Both the position numbers and the translations under genes were made by a program. Below, piece after piece: positions 3,701-63,982 of a stretch of DNA of 64,000 nt. The notes beneath the pieces were generated by a model, which did not search any database, was not told where the DNA came from, and saw only the letters and a program-made list of their open reading frames with translations. The stretch is taken from contig JAGOQP010000005.1 of the NCBI GenBank assembly GCA_017991375.1, positions 8,348 through 72,347 on the forward strand, read 5' to 3'. Each line of letters opens with the position of its first letter. Position 1 is the first letter of the stretch. This DNA is from Minisyncoccota bacterium. GTDB taxonomy: Bacteria > Patescibacteriota > Minisyncoccia > UBA6257 > JAGOQP01.

Positions 3701-3761
3701 CATGATGCTAATACTAACTAACGACTAACCACCTACAACTAACAACAAGAGAAATCGTTAA
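3701..3761. repeat. 61-nt interspersed repeat, copy A, identical to 34696..34756
   Basis: catgatgctaatactaactaacgactaaccacctacaactaacaacaagagaaatcgttaa occurs identically at both loci. A degenerate copy is at 18171..18218. Confidence 0.9.
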
Positions 3762-4057
3762 TCTTTGACCAGGACCGGGAAGACGATCTTTCATCTTTAG
3801 TCATTAATCCTTGACTGGGAGCGGGGAGGGAATCATTAATCTTTTATCGTTAATTGTTGACCGAGAGCGGGTAGCTATTAACCTTTGGTTTTTGATCGCC
3901 GGTCGTTAATTGCCGAATCTTATTATACACTTTTTAATATTGTGCGACAGATGGGTATATTGATTGTGGCTAATGGCCTTCCTATCTCGTCGCGGCGGGT
4001 TTGGAATGGTGCTCATGCATATGATTGACTTTTGGGGCTAAATGGCATATACTATAG

Positions 4058-7674: not shown

Positions 7675-8124
7675 ATAGTGTTATTTTATGCTTATAAATC
7701 CTTATTAATGGCTATTTTTCTTGCTTTTTAGAGCAACAAAAAAGTCCCTGGGAGACCCCTGGACTGTACCTCCATTATACACGAGTGGGGGAAAAAGTCA
7801 AGTGGGGGCACTGGGTAGTGGTAAGTGAAAAGAGAAAAGTGGAAAGTGGGAAGAGGGGTGAAACATTTAAAGTGGAAAGTCCCCCTTCGTCCACCGTAGG
7901 TGGACTACGGAAGGATGAATGAAAAGCGGAACACTGGGTGAAGAAGAGGGGGTAAATGACTGTTAGTTTATGACTCGTTCCGCGTTTATCGTTTCACATG
8001 TAACTCGTCTATCTTTAATCGTTAACCAGGGACGCGTTTAGTATTTCGTATGGCGTACTTTGTTGGGGTGGATTTGCAACGAAATTGCGTGTTCTTATAG
8101 CGGAGGAGAGTATATGCTGGTATT

Positions 8125-8712
8125 ATGTGTTGTATGAAAGAGATCCTTACGCGGGCATTGGTACTAGGGTGTTTTGATGTTGGAGAGATGGATGGATTGG
8201 TCCGCCTGTATACAAAAGAGCTTGGCAAGGTGACGGCTCGTGCTCGGAGTATTCGCAAGATAACGTCAAAATCTGGCGGACATTTACAGCCACTCCATTT
8301 TGTAGTCACTCGGCTTGTTCGGCGATCGGGTGGTGGTGACGGATATGGCATCGTTGATGCAAGTGTTGATCCTATGTTTATAGGAGCATCTCCTCAAAAG
8401 CGATTTGATCTCATTCCTTTGATCGGGCTTTTAGACCGACTCACTCTAGATTATATGGCTGATGGTCGACTTTGGCTTTTTGTCGAAAAACTTTTTTTAA
8501 AACGATATGATCACCTTGACGCGGTGCGCACGCTCATTTCATTGTTAGGGTTTGACCCACGCTCCGCGGCATGTGCTCACTGTCACGCATGGTCTGTTTC
8601 CGCTTTTGTTTCTGGGCATGATGTTTTTTTATGTGATTCGTGTGCTTTGTCTGTTGATTCAAATGCGGTAGAATGGATAGGAGAGGACAAACAACCAACG
8701 ACTCATAACTAA
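8125..8712 (+). CDS. recO: DNA repair protein RecO
   Basis: N-terminal OB-fold region (ALVLGCFDVGEMDGLVRLYTKELGKVTARAR) and C-terminal Cys4 zinc motif (CAHCHAW...FLCDSC). The 3' end runs into repeat-like sequence (..EDKQPTTHN*). Confidence 0.6.
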   Translation: MCCMKEILTRALVLGCFDVGEMDGLVRLYTKELGKVTARARSIRKITSKSGGHLQPLHFVVTRLVRRSGGGDGYGIVDASVDPMFIGASPQKRFDLIPLIGLLDRLTLDYMADGRLWLFVEKLFLKRYDHLDAVRTLISLLGFDPRSAACAHCHAWSVSAFVSGHDVFLCDSCALSVDSNAVEWIGEDKQPTTHN

Positions 8713-8744
8713 CGACGCGTATTTTTTTGAGAATAAAATTTTAT

Positions 8745-10634
8745 ATGTCACTTGAGGATTTAGAAAAAGAACTTTATAGTGGTCGTCCCATTCACCGAGA
8801 GGCGCCTAACCAATCGTCCTCTACGCCCTCATTAGAAAATCCATCGCCTTTGGGGAGTCCGTGGGGGGTTGCTTCTTTAGACGACAACTCTCGTCCTATT
8901 CAAGTTGGAAGGTACTGGAAATTTATTCTTGTTTTTCTTGTTGTGGTGCTTGTAGGACTTGCTGGACTTGCTGGTTTTTATTTGTATCAATACTTTACCA
9001 CTCGTGATGTTTCGCTTGTGGCCGATGCCCCCAGTGAAATTTCTGTCGGGGTTCCGTTTACTCTTTCTCTTACCGTTGAAAACCTTTCACAAAAAGTACT
9101 TCAAGATTCTCGTGTCGCACTCGCGCTTCCTGATGGAGCGGTTTATTTAGATGATCCATCAAAACGCATCGTATCCATTGATCTTGATCCATTGGCCTCT
9201 GGTGAAGCGTCTCGGCGTGAAATTTCACTTGTTATTACCGGCGCATCGCTTGCCACCTATCGTTTTGAAAGTGTTTTTTCGTATCGCTACGATTCGGGAA
9301 CGCTCTCTAGTCGATTTGATAAGAAAAAAACCGTCGAGCTTCTTGCTCGGGATCCCGTGCTCGCACTTGAGCTTTCTGCTCCGGAAAAAGTGCTTCCTGG
9401 GGAAGATTTTGAAGTCAATATATCATATCAAAACACCGGACAGGTGACGCTTTTGGGGGCGCGTATCGCTCTTACTCTCCCGGTCGGATTTTCTGTTAAG
9501 AACTCAGATTTTGTTGTTGGTAGTGACGGTGTTGTCATTCTTTCCGATATTGCTCCAGGAGGGCGTGGGGTGGTAACACTCTCTGCGACCATGAGTGGCA
9601 AAGCGTATACTTTTTTTTCCATTGACGCGATCGCGCGCATTCCCCTTGGGTCTGTGATGTACGATATTGCGAAAAAGAGTGTTTCTGTTTCGCTTTCTCC
9701 GTCACCGCTCTCGTTGGATATTGGTGTTTCTGGTGGTAGCACCACTACCTATCCTGGGGACCTTCTTTCTTACCAGCTTTCTTTTTCAAATAATTCCGAT
9801 ATTAATCTTTCTGATGTGATTGTTTCGGCAACACTTAGCGGGGACTCTTTTGATCTTTCTTCTGTTGAATCAAGCGGTCACTTTGATGATGTTAAGAAAA
9901 CGATTACATGGACCGCCGCTTCAGAGGGTATTTTAAAAGAACTTCGCGCGCATGATTCGGGGAACGTTTCCTTTCGTGTTCGTATCAAAAAGACATTACC
10001 CACTTCTCAATTAAGCGACAAGAATTTCTCTGTACGCGTTCATGGGGAGGTGACCTCTCCTACCGTCCCTTACTCTGTTGTTGCACAAAAAACAATTGGA
10101 AGCGCAGATCTTGAGGTATCTGTTGGTGGGTCATTGAGCGTTGAGCAGCATGCCTATTTTGCAGATTCATCTAGTGATATAGCAAATGATGGCATGATTC
10201 CTCCACGCGTCGGAATTCCGACGGAATACACTATTCATTGGGACGCGTATGCTTTTTCAACTGATTGGGATGGGGTGCGCGTATCGGCATTTTTGGGTCC
10301 TGGTGTGAAATGGACGGGGAAGGTGAAAACGAATGGAAAAACCGTTCCAACGTATAATGAACGCACGCAAGAGATTGTGTGGGATATTGGACGTGTTAAC
10401 GCTGGGCGAGGGACCGTTGACCCTCCTTTAAGCGCTGTTTTTCAGATTAGTATTATTCCATCATTGAACCAAGTCGGCCAAACTCCTACGCTTGTGGCAA
10501 GCCCTGTTATAACGGGAACTGATGTATTTGTTGGTAAATCAATAACGCGTTCATTGCAGTCGGTCTCCACGCGCGATATAAGCGATGCAGATCGTCCTCT
10601 TAATTACGATAGGGTGGCGGGCAGTGGGCAGTGA
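8745..10634 (+). CDS. Hypothetical membrane-anchored surface protein with repeated beta-sandwich (DUF11/CARDB-like) modules
   Basis: First ATG at 8745 within ORF 8727..10634. Cytoplasmic N-terminus and one TM (FILVFLVVVLVGLAGLAGFYLY). Then reiterated modules such as 'PFTLSLTVENLSQ...LALPDGAVYL' and 'GEDFEVNISYQNTGQVTLLGARIALTLPVGF'. Confidence 0.4.
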   Translation: MSLEDLEKELYSGRPIHREAPNQSSSTPSLENPSPLGSPWGVASLDDNSRPIQVGRYWKFILVFLVVVLVGLAGLAGFYLYQYFTTRDVSLVADAPSEISVGVPFTLSLTVENLSQKVLQDSRVALALPDGAVYLDDPSKRIVSIDLDPLASGEASRREISLVITGASLATYRFESVFSYRYDSGTLSSRFDKKKTVELLARDPVLALELSAPEKVLPGEDFEVNISYQNTGQVTLLGARIALTLPVGFSVKNSDFVVGSDGVVILSDIAPGGRGVVTLSATMSGKAYTFFSIDAIARIPLGSVMYDIAKKSVSVSLSPSPLSLDIGVSGGSTTTYPGDLLSYQLSFSNNSDINLSDVIVSATLSGDSFDLSSVESSGHFDDVKKTITWTAASEGILKELRAHDSGNVSFRVRIKKTLPTSQLSDKNFSVRVHGEVTSPTVPYSVVAQKTIGSADLEVSVGGSLSVEQHAYFADSSSDIANDGMIPPRVGIPTEYTIHWDAYAFSTDWDGVRVSAFLGPGVKWTGKVKTNGKTVPTYNERTQEIVWDIGRVNAGRGTVDPPLSAVFQISIIPSLNQVGQTPTLVASPVITGTDVFVGKSITRSLQSVSTRDISDADRPLNYDRVAGSGQ

Positions 10635-11039
10635 AAAGTTGAACGTTGAACGAAGGAAAGATGAATAAATAATCATTAATCTTTTATCTTTAATCATTGA
10701 CCGCGCAGTGTTTATCGTCCATCTTTGACCACACACAGGTCAGGGCAACCTCCCATGTCTACCCATAGTGGACTACGGAAGGGCACGCAAATGGCATATA
10801 GCTAATAGCTAGGGGCAAAGAGTGTATGGCGAACATGAAGAAAGTGGAATGTCGAACGTTAAACGAGGGAGAGAGAAAGCAGATAATATTCATCTTTAGT
10901 CGCAATTTATTGCTCGTTCCGCGGTTATCTTTTTACGTTTAACTCATCTATCTTTTATCTTTGATTGTTAATCCTTGATTTATGGAGCTTCTTTTTTGTG
11001 GGGTTGCGAAAGAGCTCAAATGTCTATAAGCTTATTTGT

Positions 11040-18162: not shown

Positions 18163-18421
18163 TTGGTAATATGATGCTCATCTACTCACTAACGACTAAT
18201 AACCAACAACTAACAACAGCGGTAAGGAAAACTATTAACTGTTGATCCTTGACAAAATGGTTGGCGTTGTTTATGCTTAGTTTATTGAAATCCGCCGAAC
18301 CGAGCGGATTTGTTCTTAAAAAGTAACTTATAATCGAGACCTTACCAGCATAAAAAAATAACTCAACTTCGTATTGGTTTTGATTAAGCATGTTTGAGTA
18401 CTACACACACAAAGAAAATAT

Positions 18422-22459: not shown

Positions 22460-22728
22460 ACAGATAATCATTAACCATTAATCTTTAATCCTTGACCGAG
22501 GAATGTATGGCGGGATATGAAGAAAGTGGGATGTCACAAGTTAAACGTTCTTCGATTCCGGTCTCATTCGAGTCTGAGGGCCTATCCCTCAGAGTCGAAG
22601 ACAGGATAAATGGAAAAGAGGAAAGGGGTGGCTGTTTATTGTTAATCGCATAATGTTAGTTGCTAATTGAAAAGTGTTCCTTAAGTGGGGCGCTTTTTGG
22701 TTGGGTATTGTTTTGCTATACTCTGTGT

Positions 22729-33022: not shown

Positions 33023-33520
33023 ATGAATCACATTCGTTTTTGTAGTGATAGCGCTACTGTTACGCAACAACTGGGAGCTACCGTGGCGCGCCATCTTTTT
33101 CGCTCTCGCCATCGAGGGGCCTATACTCTTTTACTTAAAGGTGATTTAGGAGCGGGGAAGACGACATTTACTCTTGGTTTTTTGAAGGCGCTGGGGGTTC
33201 GTCCTTTGGCCGCGAGTCCTACGTTTGTGATTATGAAGAGATACGGGGTTAACAAACAACAGACAACAAACAACAGACAACAAAGAAAAAAAACAAACAG
33301 ACCTAAAAAACAATTGACTATTTATCATTTGGATGCATATCGGTTGCGGGGAAAAAAAGACCTGAGAGCTTTAGATTTTGATTCAATTATGAATGATTCA
33401 TACGCGATTGTTCTTATTGAATGGCCAGAGAATATAAAAGGAATACTGTTTCCCAACAAACTCACCATCCGATTTTCTTATGGGAAAAAAGAGAATGAGC
33501 GGGTGATATCTGTTGGATAA
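33023..33520 (+). CDS. tsaE: tRNA threonylcarbamoyladenosine biosynthesis protein TsaE, with an in-frame low-complexity insertion
   Basis: TLLLKGDLGAGKTTFTLGFLKALG (P-loop) ... SPTFVIMKRY[GVNKQQTTNNRQQRKKTNRPKKQLT]IYHLDAYRL. The bracketed segment is extra relative to the usual TsaE spacing. Confidence 0.75.
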   Translation: MNHIRFCSDSATVTQQLGATVARHLFRSRHRGAYTLLLKGDLGAGKTTFTLGFLKALGVRPLAASPTFVIMKRYGVNKQQTTNNRQQRKKTNRPKKQLTIYHLDAYRLRGKKDLRALDFDSIMNDSYAIVLIEWPENIKGILFPNKLTIRFSYGKKENERVISVG

Positions 33521-34695: not shown

Positions 34696-34756
34696 CATGA
34701 TGCTAATACTAACTAACGACTAACCACCTACAACTAACAACAAGAGAAATCGTTAA
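34696..34756. repeat. 61-nt interspersed repeat, copy B (identical to 3701..3761)
   Basis: Exact 61/61 match to copy A. It ends 17 nt before the PilB-like ATG. Confidence 0.9.
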
Positions 34757-34772
34757 CCTTTTATCACTATTC

Positions 34773-36491
34773 ATGTCTGACATCCAAGATCAACTATCAC
34801 GAATGCGTAGAGACGCGGAAGAACGTGACGCGCAACGCAGGGCATCGTCATATGGACTCTCGTACCTTGCTCCCGAAAAGGTTTCGGTCTCTTTAGACGC
34901 GCTTGGGCTTATCCCAGAAGAAAAAGCAAAACAAAGCCAGTGCGCAACTATTGCCATCAAAGGAAAGCGTATCGCGGTCATCGCCTGTGACTCTAAATTC
35001 TCTCAGACCGTCGCTCAGCTCAAAGAGCTTGAGACACAAGGATACTCAGTTAATCTTTTTATCGTTTCTCTTAGTTCGTTACTGTACGCCTTTTCTTTTT
35101 ATAAATTTGTTCAAAAAGAACGCGGGGCGATTTCTGGGAAAGTCCGCGTTGGATCTCAAATAAATGAGTCATCGGACACTTCTTCCGAAAAAACCGTTTC
35201 TCAAAAAGGACTTGATACTATAGCGGCGGTGCATGCCGCGCTTGAGAATCGTATCGCTGGGGGACAAATTTCCGATATGGTTGATACGTTACTCGCGGGC
35301 GCTTTGGGAACGCGCGCATCCGATATTCATTTGGAACCAGGGGACTCGGTTTCCAAATTACGTTATCGCATTGATGGTAATTTAAATGATGTGCATGGCT
35401 CTCTAAGCAACAATATATATCACTCAATTGTTTCTCGGATAAAACTTCTTTCAAATCTTAAACTTAACGTAAAAGATGAACCGCAAGACGGACGTTTCAC
35501 TATTAATTTTCCCAACAAAGATGTGCAGGTGCGTGTTGCACTAGCGCCATCAGAATTTGGCGAAGTGGTGGTGATGCGTCTTTTGGACCCGGACGCGATT
35601 AACCTTTCGCTTTCTGACTTAGGTCTTCGTGACGATGATCGTGTAATCGTGGAGGAGCAACTTGCAAAGCCGTATGGAATGGCGCTCAATACCGGTCCTA
35701 CTGGGTCGGGTAAAACAACTACTTTGTACGCGTTCCTGCGACACAAAATTACTTCTGAGGTGAAAATTATTACTATTGAAGATCCTATTGAATACCATCT
35801 TGATGGTATCCAACAAACGCAAGTTGACAATGAAGCAGGATACACGTTTGCCTCTGGTTTGCGATCGCTCATGAGGCAGGACCCTGATGTTATTCTAGTT
35901 GGTGAAATCAGAGACAAAGAAACCGCCGAAATCGGGGTGCAAGCGGCGCTTACTGGGCATTTGGTGTTCTCAACTGTTCACGCCAATGAGGCCGCGGGAG
36001 CGATCCCTCGTCTTTTTGATTTAGGAGTAAAAGCAGCAAGTCTCGCGCCAGCTCTCAATTTACTTATTGCTCAACGCTTAGTTCGTCGATTGTGTTCGTC
36101 GTGCAAGGAGAAAGATGAAGCAATAAATGCAGACATAAAGGAAAAAATAAAAGCTCACGCGCTTGCGCTTCCTGCTCGCGTGGACGGGAAAAAATTTGTT
36201 GATGCGTGTGAGTTTTATAAACCGGCTGGGTGTGAAAAATGCAATAATACCGGATTTAAGGGGCGCGTGGGTATTTATGAGCTACTAGTGGTGACTGATT
36301 CATTGCGTGCGCTCATTCAAAAAGAAGTTGGACAAATAGAATTTCAACAAGCGATCGCGCATACCGATTTTGTTTCAATGCAAAGCGACGGCGTGTTAAA
36401 AGTTATGTCGGGCCTTACGACACTTGAAGAAGTTGAGAGTGTGACGGGGAAGATAGCATGGGGGAATCTAGGCGTTAAAAGTAAAGAGTAG
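34773..36491 (+). CDS. Type II/IV secretion-system ATPase, GspE/PilB family
   Basis: GspE N-terminal domain, Walker A NTGPTGSGKTTTLYAF, Asp/His boxes, and a C-terminal tetracysteine (CSSC...CEKC). Confidence 0.85.
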   Translation: MSDIQDQLSRMRRDAEERDAQRRASSYGLSYLAPEKVSVSLDALGLIPEEKAKQSQCATIAIKGKRIAVIACDSKFSQTVAQLKELETQGYSVNLFIVSLSSLLYAFSFYKFVQKERGAISGKVRVGSQINESSDTSSEKTVSQKGLDTIAAVHAALENRIAGGQISDMVDTLLAGALGTRASDIHLEPGDSVSKLRYRIDGNLNDVHGSLSNNIYHSIVSRIKLLSNLKLNVKDEPQDGRFTINFPNKDVQVRVALAPSEFGEVVVMRLLDPDAINLSLSDLGLRDDDRVIVEEQLAKPYGMALNTGPTGSGKTTTLYAFLRHKITSEVKIITIEDPIEYHLDGIQQTQVDNEAGYTFASGLRSLMRQDPDVILVGEIRDKETAEIGVQAALTGHLVFSTVHANEAAGAIPRLFDLGVKAASLAPALNLLIAQRLVRRLCSSCKEKDEAINADIKEKIKAHALALPARVDGKKFVDACEFYKPAGCEKCNNTGFKGRVGIYELLVVTDSLRALIQKEVGQIEFQQAIAHTDFVSMQSDGVLKVMSGLTTLEEVESVTGKIAWGNLGVKSKE

Positions 36492-37840: not shown

Positions 37841-37950
37841 GGATGTCAAATGATCGGATATCAGATGTCAGAGGTCGGAGATCAGATATCGGATGGCAGA
37901 GATCAGATGGCGGATATCGGACGTCAGATGTCAGGGGTCAGATATCGGAG
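37841..37950. repeat. Degenerate tandem 9-12-nt repeats (GATATCGGA / GATGTCAGA / GATCAGAT units)
   Basis: ...gatgtcaaatgatcggatatcagatgtcagaggtcggagatcagatatcggatggcagagatcagatggcggatatcggacgtcagatgtcaggggtcagatatcggag... A related short array is at 49427..49485. Confidence 0.7.
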
Positions 37951-39001: not shown

Positions 39002-42000
39002 ATGCTACGAAATCTTAAATCGTTTACCCCTCCCGAACTAGAAGAAAAAGTGCTGGCACTCTGGAAAGAAAAGAATGTATTCAAAAAATCTATTACTCCC
39101 AAGAAAGGCGCGCGTGTTCGCCGATTTAATTTTTGGGAAGGACCGCCAACTGCCAACGGACGCCCCGGGATTCATCATGTGCTCGCGCGAGCGTTTAAAG
39201 ACGTGGTGTTGCGATTTAAAACGATGCAGGGCTTTATTGTTCCTCGAAAAGGGGGGTGGGATACGCACGGATTACCAGTTGAACTACAAGTAGAAAAGCA
39301 ACTAGGATTTACATCAAAAAAAGACATTGAAGCATTTGGTGTCGCTTCGTTTAACCAAAAGTGTAAAGAGTCGGTGTGGCTGTATAAGAGTGAGTGGGAG
39401 AAGCTCACTGAACGTATGGGGTATTGGTTGGATCTTGAACACCCATATGTGACGTATCACAAGAGCTATATGGAGTCGCTGTGGTGGATTATCAAACAGA
39501 TTTGGGACAAGGGGTTGTTGTATAAAGGACACAAAGTTGTTCCCTGGTGCACGCGTTGTGGCACGGCTCTTTCGTCTCACGAATTGGCACAAGGGTACAA
39601 AGAAGTAACTGATACATCGGTGTATGTAAAGTTTAAATTATTACCAAAACAAAAAATCGGTTCTTTTGTTACTGATGATAATACATTCATTCTTTCGTGG
39701 ACGACAACGCCGTGGACATTGCCAGGAAATGTTGCGCTCGCGGTTGGAGAAAAGATTCAATACAAAGCAGTGAAAGACCAAGAGAGTAAAGAAGTGTACA
39801 TCTTAGCATATGAATTAATAGAGAATGTGTTAAAGAAGGATGGATTGGAACCTATATCCGATATAAAAGGAAAGGATCTTGTCGGACTTTCGTACGAACC
39901 TCTTTTTAACGTGCCGTCACTCCATTCGGGCACATCATACCGCGTATATCCTGCTGATTTTGTGACGACAACCGATGGAACCGGTGTTGTGCACACCGCG
40001 GTTATGTACGGTGAAGATGATTACGTCTTAGGAAAAGAAGTTGAATTGCCACAAAAACACACCGTTGATGAGCAAGGATTTTTTACTAAGGAGGTAGTCG
40101 ATCTTGCGGGTCTCTACGCCAAAGATAAAAAAACAGAAGAAACTATTGTGCGTATTCTTTCGCAAAAAAATCTAATTCTTTCCACAGTTCCTCACACACA
40201 TGACTATCCTCATTGCTGGAGATGTGGCACGCCTCTTTTGTACTACGCTCGCTCATCGTGGTTTGTCGCGATGTCGAAATTACGCGCCCAACTTATTGAA
40301 TCAAACAAGGACACCATTTGGGTCCCCTCACATATTAAAGAAGGACGATTTGGTGAATGGCTTTCTGAAGTTAAGGATTGGAATTTTTCCCGTGAGCGGT
40401 ATTGGGGAACACCGCTTCCTATATGGGAATGTTCGTGCGGTCATCAAGAGGCGATAGGGAGTTATATGGAATTAAGTGCGCGTCTGCCACACTCTACTAA
40501 CCGCTACATTTTCGTGCGGCACGGAGAAGCGGGCCATAATATAAAACATATCATTAACTCAGATCCTAAAAATAAAGACGAATTTTCTCTCACTAAAAAA
40601 GGAGAACAACAGGTTGCAAAAACAGCGGCACAACTTAAAAAAACATTTAAGCGAGTAGACGCGCTCTATTCATCCGATTTTATTCGTGCCAGAGAAACGG
40701 CGAGTATTATCGCTCGCGCAGTGGGGGCATCTCACGTTCATTATGACCCGAGATTAAGAGAAATTTTTGTCGGTTCATTTGAAGGAGAGCATATGGATCG
40801 ATACCATCACTACTACGCATCACTCGAAGAAAAATTTATAAAACCAGCTCCCGAGGGAGAAAGTTTACAAGATGTTGCCGCTCGCGTGTGGGATTTTATC
40901 TCCGCGTGTGAAAAGAAGCATACAAATGAAACCATTGTGGTGGTAAGTCACGAGTATCCTATATGGATGCTTGAAGCAGTGCTTTCCGGTTGGAGTCAAG
41001 AGGAGGCGGTAGCCAAAAAAGAAAGCCGTGGCGATGATTTTATTGCTCTTGCCGAGTCGCGCGCGGTAGAGTGCGTCGCCGCGTCACGTGACGAGAAGGG
41101 TTTTGCTGATTATCACAAACCATACATTGACGCGGTTACTATTCCCTGTAAGAAATGCGGTGCTCATATGACGCGCGTGAAGGAGGTTGTAGATGTGTGG
41201 TTTGATTCTGGCGCAATGCCGTTTGCGCAATCGCATTATCCATTTGGGGCAACCAACAACCAACCCTTCGATCCCTCAGGATCTGCCATAAGCAGACAAC
41301 CAACAACCAACGAAAAAAAATAGGGAACGAAAGATAAAAAACAAAACATCGATGAGCTTGTCTATCCGGCGGAGTATATTTCCGAAGCCATTGATCAAAC
41401 ACGTGGGTGGTTCTACACCCTATTAGCGGTGGCAACGCTTTTGGGAAAGCCCACCCCGTATAAAAACATTATTTGTCTTGGACACATCAACGACAAAAAT
41501 GGACAAAAAATGTCCAAGTCAAAAGGAAATATTGTTGATCCATGGGGAGTGGCCAACAAATATGGCATGGATGCTATTCGGTGGTATTTGTACTCCGTCA
41601 ACAGCCCGGGAGATCCAAAGAACTTTGATGAGGACGAGGTGGCAAAAATTGTACGTAGCGTACTACTCACACTCTATAACTCGTTTGTATTTTTAAACGT
41701 GTATGGAAAAGACAAGTTGTTGCTTACCAGACAGCCGGCGGCAGTGGGGGCGCTTGATACATGGATCTACGCGCGCGTTGCCCAGGTAAGTGCCGCGGTA
41801 CGTGAACGTATGGACGCATACGACATTACCAAATCCACTCAACTCATAGAAGAATTTATCGACGATTTGTCGCGGTGGTATATTCGTCGTTCTCGCAAGC
41901 GATTTCAGCGCCCTCAAAACGCGGCCGAACATCAACGCGTGTCCGCGGTTCTTGCATTTGTGCTTTTTGAAACAAGTAAAATAATCGCTCCATTTCTTCC

Positions 42001-42676
42001 TTTTTTTGCCGAGGAGCTTTATCAGTCGCTTGTTCATATGTATCGATGCGATGCTAAGGACTCTGTTCATCTGGCGTCATGGCCGCAAAGTTCAAAATCA
42101 ACATTTAATAATGCTTTGTGCGAGCATATGACGCGAGTGCGTTCCATTGCTTCACTCGCATTAGCGTTGCGCGCTGAGCTTGGTATAAAAGTTCGTCAAC
42201 CGCTTGCCACTCTGACGGTTAAGGGAGATGTTTTTTCGGGAGTATTTGCACAAGAACTTCTGGATATTCTTAAAGAGGAGGTGAACGTAAAAAACGTGGT
42301 GTTCGATAAAAATCTTGATACCGATGTTATATTAGATACTGTTATTACGCCAGAACTTAGAGCAGAAGGATTGCTTCGCGAAATGACTCGTGTGGTACAA
42401 GATCTTCGTCAAGAGGCGGGGTATGTGCCGCAAGATACTATCGCGCTGTGGATCGACACCAATGGTTCGCTCGCGCCGCTTCTTCGTACGCATCAGGAAC
42501 GGTTTGCAAAAGACGTTGGAGCATACGTAGTTAATTTTGAAAAAAGCGCACTCTTTGACGCAGAAATAGAGACCAAGGTTGATGATCAGCGGGTGTGGGT
42601 GGGGGTCAAAAAAGAGACAAACAACTCACGACATACAACCAACAACAAGAAAGAAAAGAAGAATAAGAGGCATTAA
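39002..42676 (+). CDS. ileS: Isoleucine--tRNA ligase (type 2, Cys-knuckle type). One frame throughout, interrupted by a single in-frame TAG at 41321-41323, with an embedded histidine-phosphatase domain
   Basis: HIGH = PGIHHVLARAFKD. KMSKS = KMSKSKGN (41507-41530). The editing/CP1 and anticodon-binding regions are present. Across the TAG the frame reads ...[44 protein letters not shown]..., which is the conserved IleRS '..DQ.RGWF' block. A PGAM-like domain (RYIFVRHGEAGHN ... IVVVSHEYPIWMLEAVL) sits between WECSCG and PCKKCGAH. Confidence 0.85.
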
Positions 42677-44228: not shown

Positions 44229-44777
44229 CTACTGTTCTATTGCTTTTTTTATCTTTTTTAGCGCCCTCATCTGTATAATGCGGACGGCTCCTTGTGTTTT
44301 TCCTATGGCTCGGGCTATTTCTTTATGTGATAACTCCTGTACGAATCGCATGAGGATAATATCCTGCTGTTCATGGGAGAGCATCTTAAGCGCTTCCATA
44401 ACGCGTTGCATATCTAATCGTGTCGCTGTTTCTTTTTCGATCCCCTCTGTCGCGCCAAGCGCTTCTTCGGCGATTGCCTCTATGTGTATTGGCGTGTGTT
44501 GTGTTCGGTAGTGATCGATAACTTTATTTCGCGCGATCCGGTAGAGCCAACTCGCAAAAGGGAGTCCATGGTCTATAAAATGTTCTATGGTTTGCCACGC
44601 GCTCAAAAATACTTGGTGGGTGAGATCCTCGGCGTCCTCACGACGGCTTACTTTGAGATAAATAAACCGATAGATGGCTGGCTGATACCGGTCATAGAGC
44701 AAGCCAAAAGCCGAGGACTCACCCTCCGTGGCTCTTTGTATCAGCTCTTTTTCATTATCGGTGTGTCCATCTACCAT
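44229..44777 (-). CDS. ECF-type RNA polymerase sigma-70 factor
   Basis: Region 2 (LLYDRYQPAIYRFIYLKVSRREDAEDLTHQVFLSAW) and region 4 HTH (LSHKEIARAIGKTQGAVRIIQMRALKKI). Confidence 0.8.
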   Translation of the reverse strand: MVDGHTDNEKELIQRATEGESSAFGLLYDRYQPAIYRFIYLKVSRREDAEDLTHQVFLSAWQTIEHFIDHGLPFASWLYRIARNKVIDHYRTQHTPIHIEAIAEEALGATEGIEKETATRLDMQRVMEALKMLSHEQQDIILMRFVQELSHKEIARAIGKTQGAVRIIQMRALKKIKKAIEQ

Positions 44778-49568: not shown

Positions 49569-49656
49569 CGTTGAAATAACTCACAACCTACAACCTACAA
49601 CTTACAACAGGGACTTGTGTAGTTAGTCGTCAGTCGTCAGTTGTTAGTCATCTCTG

Positions 49657-52889: not shown

Positions 52890-53315
52890 ATGAAGGCGAT
52901 ATTAAAACAAGTTACCGATTTTGATTCGACATCTTCTGACGAATCTCTGATCAAAAAAAATACTATAGTCAAAGAAGAAAAAATAACTTCTAACGATGGT
53001 GGCCAAGAGCGTGTTGAACTGATAAAAAAAGAAATTGAGGTTATCGAGCCGATATTTATTGAAGTGGATGATCGGACATATATCAAGTTCGATAAAAGTT
53101 CGCATCGTTCTGAAACTATTAATGTTGGCGAATTACGGGATCGCAAACAAGAAATTGAAACACGGCTTGCTCTTTTAAACGACTACTCCGATGAAAACTT
53201 ACTAGCATGGGCAAAGAGTAATTACCCAGGAGAAACGGGTGTCAAAGAAAGAGAGCAGTTAATAAGCGAGCTTAATACTATTAACGGTAATTTAAACGAA
53301 ATCGATGGCGATTAA
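52890..53315 (+). CDS. Small acidic hypothetical protein; overlaps the downstream giant ORF, suggesting translational coupling
   Basis: 141 aa, E/D/K-rich with no TM. Its stop overlaps the start of the 854-aa ORF by 11 nt. Confidence 0.35.
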   Translation: MKAILKQVTDFDSTSSDESLIKKNTIVKEEKITSNDGGQERVELIKKEIEVIEPIFIEVDDRTYIKFDKSSHRSETINVGELRDRKQEIETRLALLNDYSDENLLAWAKSNYPGETGVKEREQLISELNTINGNLNEIDGD

Positions 53316-55869
53316 GGTTGCTACATCATCGGGGAACTTCAACACCGCAGGTACGTGGTACACGGGAACAGAAACCAATACTGGAAGCACGGGCGGTACA
53401 ACTATGTCGACTACCCGTTACACGGCTGCTTTTACCGCCCCAAACACGACGAACACTTGTCAAGGGATAGTCGTATTAATGTATAGTTTGCCAACGTCGT
53501 CTCTTTCAAGTGTTACTGCGCAACTGCAAGAGTATAATGGGAGTACGTGGAATGATTGCGCCGGGGCGTCGATGACTCTTAACGAAAGCGACATTGACGC
53601 GTTCCGTTACTACACCGCTTCAACCACTGTTGCGTTGTTCTTGTATTTCAAGTTCGGAACGCCTTACACGTACACGACGACCTCTGCGGGTTATTATCGC
53701 GTAAAGCTTTCTCGCGCAGTGGCGAGCGCGTCAACCGCCGTGTATGCAAGCACGGTGACGAGTGAGGTGTGGGGGGTTATTGTTGATGACCGCACAGGCG
53801 CACCAGCTTCTTCAGATACGTGTTATGTGGTTGGCGTAACGGGGACGAAGACGACGGTGACGCTTGATGGTGCTTGCGCTTGCGGCCCAACGGTTGCGAC
53901 TGATGGTACTGATTATAGTACGATAACACCCTCTAACTCTGCTAACTGGGGGTTGTGCATAGGTTATCAAGGACAAGTCATTCCCGATTCAACGCAAAAC
54001 ACAACTCTGACAATGAATGGTTCTGCTCCGATTGTCGTTGCTGGAGGTCAGCTTAACTTCGGAACAGCTTCCGCGCCTTACACCGCTTCGTATACCGCGC
54101 AGATTGTTTATAACCCAAAAACGGCTTATTCGTGTGGTATTAGGGTTTATGGGTACAATGCTTCGTTAGAGCATTTCAGTATGGTTGGTCAGAGTAAGAC
54201 ATACAAGACCACCTATACTTCTGGCGCTGGAACGACCGCGAGTCCTTTAGTGGTCGCTGACGCGACTGGCTGGGCGGTTGGAGACCTCATCGGAGTGTCG
54301 GGCGATGCTTACAACAAACACGAGTTTAAGTACATAAAGACACTTGCGGGAACGTCTATCACCACTGCCGATAGTGTTGGTGGCGCAGAAAGCGGTTTTT
54401 CAAACACTCATTACGCGGCTGATTGGGTGCTGAACCTTTCTCGTAACGTGAAAATGGTTTCTTCGGGCGCGAACAAGTTTTGGTTCGGTTTTTTGAACAA
54501 TGTTTCTACGACTGCGGGGATTATGAAGTACGCAGAGTTTTCAGACATCGGAGGAAACGCGAGTTCACGGTTTACTTTTTTCATCGCGAACACTGCTCGC
54601 CACGCAATCAATATTGAAGGGTGCGCCATTTATGACATTCGCAACACGACTAATCTTACACAACCGTTGATTTACGGCTACGACACCTCTAACGCAAGCA
54701 ACACATACAAGAACAACGTGCATTTCGTGGCGGTGCTCGCAACAGTTCCTTATGTGAGTACGATGGCGCGGTTGTCGTTGAAGAACAACTCTGCCACGAA
54801 CGTTACAAACAATTATTTCGTCGGCGGTAGATACATTGGGTGTGACTTGTATGGCTATGGAGCGACGTACGATAATTTTCACGTCAGAAACGCGAGCGCA
54901 GGATATTCAAGCTCAACTTCTTACGCGGGAATAATCGCCAATAGTGGCGCTAACGTCACGCTACAAAACTGCACAGTCAATGCTTCGCGGAGTCACGCAC
55001 TAACCATAAACGCCAATGACAACAATCTTCTCGTGAAAAACTGTTCTTTTGGGACGGTGTATGCGAACAGCGCGCTTGGCGATGTTTCGCTCAATTCATT
55101 TGGTTCGTACAGCACGGCAGTTTTTGACTCGTGCGACTTCAGTAGCGCTGGCGGGTGGTATTTCTATGTAGCAGGATCCAATGGGTATATGTATAACTCT
55201 GCGGGTTCTCAGTATGCTTTCCAAAACTATGATAATTCAAGTGGCGACCACAGGGTGTATAAACCTGAGGGTGATATACAAAGAACTGCAGCGGGACTTA
55301 CCGATACAACGGTCAGAACGACTGGCGGGAGTTGTTTAAGATTTACTCCGATAGATACGACAAACAGATTAGAATGGTCGCAGGATGTTCCTGTCGGCGA
55401 CGTTACCGCGCAAACAATGACTGTCGGCGTGTGGTGCAAGATTAACAGCGCGACATATTACGCGGGAACGAATCAGATGCCTCGCCTTACAGTAGATTAT
55501 GATAACGGCACGACGGCTTACGCGGAGGCGGCAGAATCAACTGATTGGCAATTTCTATCTATCCCCGTTACCGCCACAACTTCATATCCTAAATGGGAAC
55601 TAACCGTCTCTGCATTGACTGATGCTACAAGCACAGATGCTTATGTTTACTTCACCGACTTCTCGGTGCTCTACCCTGCGGGTTATCAGCTGAAACTCGG
55701 AGAACTGGCTTACTTTGCAGATGGAGAGCCGTTAAAGCCGACGATAGCGACCAATTTGTCACCTGCTGATGTATGGGCGGTGAGCACGAGCGGGCTTACT
55801 GGTGATGGGACAATAGGAAGGTTTGTTACAAAGTTATTAACGGTGGCGAAGTTTTTGGGGCTAAAGTAA
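53305..55869 (+). CDS. Large S/T/N/G/Y-rich protein with a predicted right-handed beta-helix (tailspike / pectin-lyase-fold-like), no signal peptide
   Basis: 854 aa. Repetitive N-x-T/S and 'NVTLQNCTV / NLLVKNCSF' rungs typical of parallel beta-helices. N-terminus MAIKVATSSGNFNTAGTWYTG has no hydrophobic leader. Confidence 0.4.
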   Translation: MAIKVATSSGNFNTAGTWYTGTETNTGSTGGTTMSTTRYTAAFTAPNTTNTCQGIVVLMYSLPTSSLSSVTAQLQEYNGSTWNDCAGASMTLNESDIDAFRYYTASTTVALFLYFKFGTPYTYTTTSAGYYRVKLSRAVASASTAVYASTVTSEVWGVIVDDRTGAPASSDTCYVVGVTGTKTTVTLDGACACGPTVATDGTDYSTITPSNSANWGLCIGYQGQVIPDSTQNTTLTMNGSAPIVVAGGQLNFGTASAPYTASYTAQIVYNPKTAYSCGIRVYGYNASLEHFSMVGQSKTYKTTYTSGAGTTASPLVVADATGWAVGDLIGVSGDAYNKHEFKYIKTLAGTSITTADSVGGAESGFSNTHYAADWVLNLSRNVKMVSSGANKFWFGFLNNVSTTAGIMKYAEFSDIGGNASSRFTFFIANTARHAINIEGCAIYDIRNTTNLTQPLIYGYDTSNASNTYKNNVHFVAVLATVPYVSTMARLSLKNNSATNVTNNYFVGGRYIGCDLYGYGATYDNFHVRNASAGYSSSTSYAGIIANSGANVTLQNCTVNASRSHALTINANDNNLLVKNCSFGTVYANSALGDVSLNSFGSYSTAVFDSCDFSSAGGWYFYVAGSNGYMYNSAGSQYAFQNYDNSSGDHRVYKPEGDIQRTAAGLTDTTVRTTGGSCLRFTPIDTTNRLEWSQDVPVGDVTAQTMTVGVWCKINSATYYAGTNQMPRLTVDYDNGTTAYAEAAESTDWQFLSIPVTATTSYPKWELTVSALTDATSTDAYVYFTDFSVLYPAGYQLKLGELAYFADGEPLKPTIATNLSPADVWAVSTSGLTGDGTIGRFVTKLLTVAKFLGLK

Positions 55870-61273: not shown

Positions 61274-61412
61274 CAAAGAATAGTGACCAGTGATTAGTGA
61301 ATAGTGGATAGTGAACAGTTCTCCTAACGAAAACAAAGATCTTCCGTTAAGAGGGTTTTTGTTGTGGTTGGGTGGTTTGTTTTAGCGGTTCAGTGCTCTA
61401 TAATATATATGT

Positions 61413-63771: not shown

Positions 63772-63982
63772 GAAAATGTGGAAAGCCCTCCTTCGCTCAT
63801 CTAATGAGCTTCGGAAGGGCACGCACGTGGCAAGTGGAATGTTAAATGTCAAAAGTGAATAGTGAGTAGCGAATAGTGTGGTGGGCGAGGAATAATGGGT
63901 AAATAACTTTTTTGCAAACAAGTAATTGGAAATAGAAAAAACTTGCGGAAAATAAATAAATAAGTACACTAGTATACACAAT

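Follow-up and report, generated by a model that had tools for sequence, protein, structure and literature searches.

The leucyl-tRNA synthetase (LeuRS) of Aquifex aeolicus is a known split class-I aminoacyl-tRNA synthetase (aaRS) of alpha/beta type, its break being placed in the catalytic domain a short way ahead of KMSKS and its two ORFs annotated side by side. In-frame UAG codons in otherwise intact essential genes are familiar from programmed amber readthrough or suppression, for example in pyrrolysine decoding or with suppressor tRNAs, and A_AAA_AAA is a classic slippery heptamer. Finally, local assembly errors occur in uncurated MAGs: 13 were reported in a 1.13-Mb CPR genome, and incorrect gene sequences spread from them (Chen et al. 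2020, PMC7111523).

The ileS gene analysed here recalls all of these cases. It lies in a 64-kb window (the whole stretch of DNA that was analysed), is interrupted by a single in-frame TAG in the catalytic domain shortly before KMSKS, directly behind an A8 run, and is annotated as two adjacent ORFs. Comparison with independent assemblies shows that the TAG is a base difference specific to this one record in an otherwise intact ileS, most likely an assembly error and less likely a rare allele.

An in-frame TAG in a type-2 ileS

Re-reading the frame from the ATG at 39002 to the TAA at 42674-42676 revealed a sole break in the translation, the TAG, which is also the only ileS lesion in the window (Table 1). 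The sequence there reads ...CAACCAACGAAAAAAAATAGGGAACG.... The first-pass annotation had described a frame that is open apart from this codon, a run of eight A immediately before it and IleRS sequence on both flanks, and all three observations held. Pfam matched the N-terminal fragment to PF00133 and PF00300, and the C-terminal fragment to PF00133 (positions 323-406), the anticodon-binding domain (PF08264, Anticodon_1; E = 1.5e-29) and DUF5915. The product combines a class-I catalytic domain (HIGH-region, KMSKS) with an Anticodon_1 domain, as befits a type-2 IleRS, and its best solved relatives are IleRS2 8c8v and 1ile in the PDB. The N-terminal truncated product, by itself, has neither KMSKS nor the anticodon-binding domain.

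In NCBI, the gene is annotated as two CDSs of 773 and 415 aa (MBP6855793.1 and MBP6855794.1), both named 'MAG: class I tRNA ligase family protein [Candidatus Pacebacteria/Paceibacterota bacterium]'. The 90% protein cluster of ileS contains three fragment sequences (773, 415 and 388 aa), which come from NCBI only and from one 79,959-bp contig; the window is accordingly a section of a deposited Paceibacterota MAG. The start of the shorter annotated CDS had been read as an ATG at 41429; the codon there is GTG.

The His_Phos_1 domain embedded in the enzyme is context and no part of the defect; it was found in 120/120 best homologues. Literature searches on the run accessions, on IleRS-histidine phosphatase fusions and on heptamer repeats in CPR returned nothing relevant, and look-up of an 854-aa protein encoded elsewhere in the window (53305-55869) gave no record.

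Table 1. Positions of the features of ileS and tsaE discussed in the text, numbered from the first base of the window.
Feature	Position	Strand	Remarks
In-frame heptamer array AACAAAC, ~7 copies, in tsaE	33251..33299	+	TRF, translation
ileS, type-2 (eukaryote-like) isoleucyl-tRNA synthetase	39002..42676	+	1224 codons including the interrupting codon; translation, Pfam, P0001
His_Phos_1 (PF00300) inside IleRS, residues 503-668	40508..41005	+	E = 7.9e-34
Hypervariable low-complexity loop, residues 749-788 (40 aa)	41246..41365	+	between conserved HYPF and YPAEY motifs
Direct repeat copy 1, exact 15-nt CAACCAACAACCAAC (heptamer unit CAACCAA)	41250..41264	+	0.21 matches expected by chance at <=2 mismatches; TRF period 7
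Direct repeat copy 2 of 15-nt CAACCAACAACCAAC	41297..41311	+	47 nt downstream of copy 1; ends 2 nt before A8 run
A8 homopolymer directly 5' of TAG	41313..41320	+	codes for part of Glu-Lys-Lys
In-frame TAG, codon 774	41321..41323	+	base 41322: A in window, G (TGG, Trp) in L001, L002, L003, L009, L099/L101
GTG, first in-frame ATG/GTG/TTG 3' of TAG	41429..41431	+	start of annotated 415-aa fragment MBP6855794.1
KMSKS catalytic motif, residues 836-840	41507..41521	+	downstream of TAG; K836, M837, S838, K839 invariant, S840 nearly so
A/C-rich tail ETNNSRHTTNNKKEKKNKRH, 3' end of ileS	42612..42676	+	absent from ~60%-identical relatives

The TAG is private to one record

A comparison with sibling genomes, which the first-pass annotation had proposed, was run and returned TGG in five near-identical assemblies and no stop in a relative with 95% amino acid identity. 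The best database match, protein P0001, is 100% identical over 1224 aa, uninterrupted, and carries W at the stop position; it is encoded on contigs from four runs (ERR14964774, SRR11235434, ERR7015365 and SRR11088371). A 3-residue variant of it (P0123), from a fifth run (ERR3438381), also has TGG. Five independent short-read assemblies of near-identical strains therefore encode one unbroken 1224-aa IleRS with Trp at codon 774. The 95%-identical relative (P0125/L008) has an unbroken 1203-aa gene in which the aligned codon is AAC (Asn) and the loop is a different, shorter one. Every sibling ileS gene forms one ORF, of either 1224 or 1203 aa, and the TAG allele is absent from 6/6 other assemblies.

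At the DNA level, the SRR11235434 locus (L002) differs from the window at one of 9583 bases, namely 41322, where the window has A and the locus G; G was likewise found in L001, L003 and L009. Three contigs from SRR11088371 (L096, L005 and L099/L101) together span 44,341 nt of the window; 44,339 of these bases match, and there are no indels. They also carry the T at 35219 that is otherwise private to the window, indicating that they derive from the same strain. Their two mismatches to the window are 41322 and 44398. At the latter position, the window allele is the one common to other samples, and the change corresponds to Met127Thr in an ECF sigma factor; as the MAG and SRR11088371 disagree at this site, the population is polymorphic. 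Beyond 41322, the compared 44 kb contain no indels and no other private defect of the MAG, which is thus not generally error-prone.

Fragment proteins of 773, 785 and 415 aa had no match in the contig index, and those of 773, 415 and 388 aa occur in the NCBI record only and never in Logan assemblies. The TAG is private to this deposited MAG record. An exact-pattern scan with TRG at codon 774 found no match in genome contigs or metagenome contigs, collections that therefore do not include the MAG itself.

Apart from 41322, ileS has 14 variable sites among the siblings, 11 of which are synonymous. The other three, together with a synonymous one that also lies in codon 104, account for three replaced residues (I79V, T104K and A693V). 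This excess of synonymous changes over replacements indicates that ileS is under purifying selection in the lineage and is not decaying. A lineage-level pseudogene was rejected on these patterns, as the lesion is single, the siblings' genes show purifying selection, and same-strain contigs lack the lesion; the first-pass reading of a recent pseudogene fails at this level, with same-strain and sibling genes intact.

A hypervariable loop and 7-nt-periodic tracts

The TAG falls in a loop that we measured from the conserved F748 (HYPF) to P789 (YPAEY) in 119 Paceibacteria-type IleRS proteins. Its length ranges from 3 to 40 aa (median 12), this lineage having the longest, and its composition is lysine-rich and of low complexity. 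None of the 119 loops has a W other than this Trp at the stop position. Even in the 95%-identical relative, the loop, there 19 aa long, cannot be aligned at the DNA level, whereas its flanks are ~94% identical. It is a fast-evolving, lysine-rich surface loop, and its variation in length and sequence marks it as a mutational hot spot that accepts almost any sequence and length.

About 34 codons around the stop had been described as extra relative to typical IleRS, which is roughly right: 36 residues stand here where the solved IleRS2 structure 8c8v has 6, leaving ~30 extra, and the shortest loops among the 119 relatives measure 3-6 aa. The accompanying description as a repeat-like insertion survives in part. 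The segment is a hypervariable low-complexity loop, but not a recently inserted element copy; judged from the related lineages, in which loops are already long, much of its length is typical for the clade.

The same holds for the claim that the segment is clearly related to an insertion in tsaE and to a family of intergenic repeats. A/C-rich tracts with 7-nt periodicity occur in frame in tsaE (where 124 positions of the TsaE Pfam profile are stretched over 151 residues), at the 3' end of ileS and in numerous intergenic regions, and a self-match scan over periods 2 to 15 found arrays only at period 7 and its multiple 14. The local alignment score of the loop against the tsaE tract was reached by 3/500 dinucleotide shuffles, that against an intergenic tract (49570-49655) by 0/500 and that against the 3' end of an ORF (8670-8715) by 2/500. 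In contrast, alignment of the loop with the ileS 3' tail was not above shuffles (59/500). The shared A/C-rich 7-nt motif therefore stands, with the tsaE score beating 497/500 shuffles, but kinship through a discrete element does not: blastn-short of the loop against the window returned only low-complexity words of 12-16 nt (E>=0.33) and no extended copies. Origin of the loop from a MITE or another discrete interspersed repeat was rejected, as this search found no extended homology with defined ends in the window. Loop, tsaE and intergenic tracts would rather share a common repeat motif or mutational process than be copies of one element. The 7-nt-periodic tracts, the hypervariable loops and the His_Phos_1 domain that IleRS contains throughout Paceibacteria may each merit a look of their own.

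Origin of the stop and comparison with known systems

Several routes by which the cell could obtain a working enzyme from the interrupted gene were weighed. Under programmed recoding, readthrough of the UAG, or its decoding by a suppressor tRNA, would be a regular trait of the gene, and its position in a tolerant loop with both flanks in the same frame would suit this. The predicted RNA fold of 41236-41400 is also slightly more stable than shuffles (z = -2.06, 6/200), but this excess is marginal, we claim no stimulatory RNA structure around the TAG, and no Rfam family matched 40800-41900 at E<=1. The stop is not conserved at this site in related genomes, with TGG in the closest relatives and AAC in a different loop in the 95%-identical one. 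As a baseline only, we took 80 species-representative type-2 ileS genes, distant relatives among the matches listed; 79 of these 80 are unbroken between the WTTTPWT and DQTRGWF motifs that flank the loop, the exception (L022) being a gene without a match to the N-terminal motif. Moreover, TAG is a normal stop here. Stops of the 54 non-overlapping long ORFs in the window comprise 33 TAA, 13 TAG (the one in ileS included) and 8 TGA, so that TAG terminates 12 of the 53 others, including the nusA, H+-PPase, RNase J and SHMT genes, whose products end at or at most one position from the ends of their Pfam profiles; the first-pass annotation had rightly called TAG a genuine stop elsewhere, naming nusA, hppA and glyA. 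Neither a cognate CUA suppressor tRNA nor TAG reassignment was found within the window, as none of its 6 tRNAs and 1 tmRNA has a CUA anticodon. Readthrough, one of the options originally offered, loses its footing with a stop that is unconserved and an ordinary terminator, and programmed recoding is most improbable. Expression as two fragments, another such option, would make the two ORFs separate, assembling subunits. NCBI does annotate two CDSs, and the interruption sits in a surface loop immediately ahead of the KMSKS region, yet between 41324 and 41428 there is no in-frame ATG, GTG or TTG. A product starting at GTG 41429 would lack 12 residues that are invariant in the 119 homologues, all between P789 and L807 and including DQTRGWFY (P789, A790, I793, E795, D798, Q799, T800, R801, W803, F804, Y805 and L807). 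No start of its own thus yields a complete C-terminal catalytic subunit, and the split is neither conserved in the lineage nor present in same-strain assemblies, which makes a split IleRS appear extremely improbable. The A8 run would offer ribosomal frameshifting or transcriptional slippage a slippery heptamer directly before the TAG. However, the ileS halves are already in the same frame, and slippage is therefore no help: a shift to -1 meets a stop after 5 codons (IGNER*), and a shift to +1 loses register with the conserved downstream sequence and meets a stop after 34. Bypass at the A8 run is next to negligible, and frameshift rescue was ruled out by the reading frames.

A different explanation is that the TAG is a genuine nonsense allele of the strain or a subpopulation, either a recent loss of function or a leaky stop tolerated in a non-conserved loop, in which the enzyme would stay active whatever residue is inserted. 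One transition suffices to turn TGG into TAG, the Trp it replaces is unique among the 119 loops, so that residue identity is unconstrained, and the MAG bears no other error signature over 44 kb. Since the MAG and its same-strain Logan contig disagree at 44398, the TAG, too, could be a genuine minor haplotype. On the other hand, IleRS is essential, no second ileS copy was found in the 64-kb window, and truncation removes KMSKS together with the anticodon-binding domain; an allele that is lethal should not become frequent where an essential gene has only one copy. The allele is also absent from all six other assemblies, and ileS is under purifying selection in the siblings. On balance, we regard a genuine nonsense allele as rather unlikely. 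That the TAG is the real majority allele in one Paceibacterota population, whose cells live on near-cognate readthrough of a leaky UAG in a tolerant loop, is very unlikely; if true, an ultra-small symbiont would here provide a natural case of a nonsense codon that is tolerated in a single-copy aaRS.

The reading that we prefer is that of a single G-to-A difference at 41322, turning TGG (Trp) into TAG in this MAG record only, while the ileS of the organism itself would be a normal, uninterrupted gene under selection. Its most likely origin is a mistake in the consensus or in local assembly, made in sequence of low complexity that comprises the A8 run, a G run and the 15-nt direct repeats; less likely, the assembler may have fixed a rare nonsense allele from the population. 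Of these two, we infer an error, and not a real minor allele, as the source of the A at 41322. Mis-assembly had been among the options of the first-pass annotation, and it is this option, or else a private minor allele, that the TGG in five assemblies and the match at 44,339 of 44,341 bases favour. The stop would then have no role in recoding, split expression or pseudogenisation of the lineage.

The stop codon itself indicates nothing new, and its biological weight is small because the lineage has a normal ileS. Its relevance is one of data hygiene: MBP6855793.1 and MBP6855794.1 have been placed in public databases as fragment proteins, and the record would make the MAG look as if it were without a complete IleRS. 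The case also shows that, where reads are out of reach, questions of this kind can be settled from independent Logan assemblies of the same population. More interesting biology lies nearby, in the hypervariable loop, in 7-nt tracts that reach into coding regions and in the His_Phos_1 domain within IleRS, none of which depends on the stop.

Set against the known systems, the locus departs from programmed amber readthrough or suppression in that its stop is not conserved, TAG is a normal terminator and the window contains no CUA tRNA. Unlike Aquifex aeolicus LeuRS, it has no start for a complete C-terminal subunit, and its split is unconserved and absent from same-strain assemblies. With the MAG errors of Chen et al. 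2020 (PMC7111523) it has in common a protein-coding gene that is broken in repeat-rich sequence of low complexity from a CPR MAG, and here a single difference was passed on to the public protein database as two fragments. Those errors, however, were mostly multi-base local misassemblies seen by missing read support, whereas the present one is a single substitution, recognised by comparing assemblies. With Priestia megaterium IleRS2 (8c8v) and Thermus thermophilus IleRS (1ile), finally, the product shares the order HYPF...(Y/F)PA(D/E)...DQTRGWFY...KMSKS on both sides of the stop (E = 1.8e-48), and it differs from them in a HYPF-YPAEY loop that is ~30 aa longer and in a His_Phos_1 domain of ~170 aa inserted upstream.

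Heptamer arrays and other repeats in the window

The window carries many short tandem arrays with a period of 7 nt, mainly intergenic or upstream of genes, and a self-match scan over periods 2 to 15 returned arrays only at period 7 and its multiple 14. Their units vary (AACTAAC, AGTGGAA, TAATCTT, ATCAGAT x13, ACAACCT and GAATAGT), and a literature search on such heptamer arrays found nothing. At three sites, A/C-rich heptamer tracts enter coding sequence, yielding an in-frame loop rich in N, Q, T, K and R in TsaE and C-terminal tails at the other two sites; the Pfam match of TsaE has its 124 profile positions spread over 151 residues.

A 71-nt repeat occurs in two copies that are 96% identical (3701-3771 and 34696-34766), both located in divergent intergenic regions, and each copy begins exactly at, or close to, the 5' end of a gene on the minus strand. 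Logan contigs assembled from short reads break off within the second copy, at 34725-34732. Separately, three adjoining small ORFs at 472-1564 form a tandem paralogue cluster: each has a match to PF18895/TrbC, a family of type IV secretion system pilins.

Coordinates of arrays, tracts, unalignable stretches and the gene containing the polymorphic site
Feature	Position	Strand	Remarks
7-nt-period array	3716-3746
7-nt-period array	7817-7853
7-nt-period array	10619-10695
7-nt-period array	18188-18217
7-nt-period array	22465-22490
7-nt-period array	34711-34741
7-nt-period array	37853-37946
7-nt-period array	49583-49649
7-nt-period array	61278-61319
7-nt-period array	63854-63878
A/C-rich heptamer tract	8681-8706		3' end of ORF 8125-8712
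A/C-rich heptamer tract	33251-33299		in tsaE
A/C-rich heptamer tract	42612-42676		ileS 3' tail
Unalignable to L008	37916-38044		edge of intergenic heptamer array and adjoining spacer
Unalignable to L008	41239-41343		ileS loop
ECF sigma factor gene	44229-44777	minus	contains 44398

Divergence between genomes and within the population

When the window was compared with L008, the locus of a relative with about 94% DNA identity, two short stretches allowed no alignment at all. This suggests that both the ileS loop and the border between the intergenic heptamer array and its adjoining spacer are subject to one and the same rapid turnover process. Besides position 41322, the sole difference from the same-strain SRR11088371 contigs lies at 44398, where the window has ATG (Met127), common to other samples, whereas the SRR11088371 contig has ACG (Thr). 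The difference reflects a real polymorphism within the population.

Comparison of ileS across lineages

Among the 80 representative ileS loci listed, only L022, from the Peregrinibacteria MAG JACPMA010000018.1, failed to show WTTTPWT and DQTRGWF together in one ORF. Its N-terminal motif was unmatched and a stop was located within the tblastn match range; this exception could stem from a diverged motif, from a frameshift or from a further error in a deposited record.

In the window, Pfam places a complete His_Phos_1 domain (PF00300) at 40508-41005, corresponding to ileS residues 503-668, where it interrupts the IleRS catalytic domain and carries the RHGE motif as 'YIFVRHGEAGHN'. A literature search for His_Phos_1 within IleRS found no description of this arrangement. 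The insert is present in all 120 of the 120 best homologues, which come from Paceibacteria, Wolfebacteria, Jorgensenbacteria, Liptonbacteria and others.
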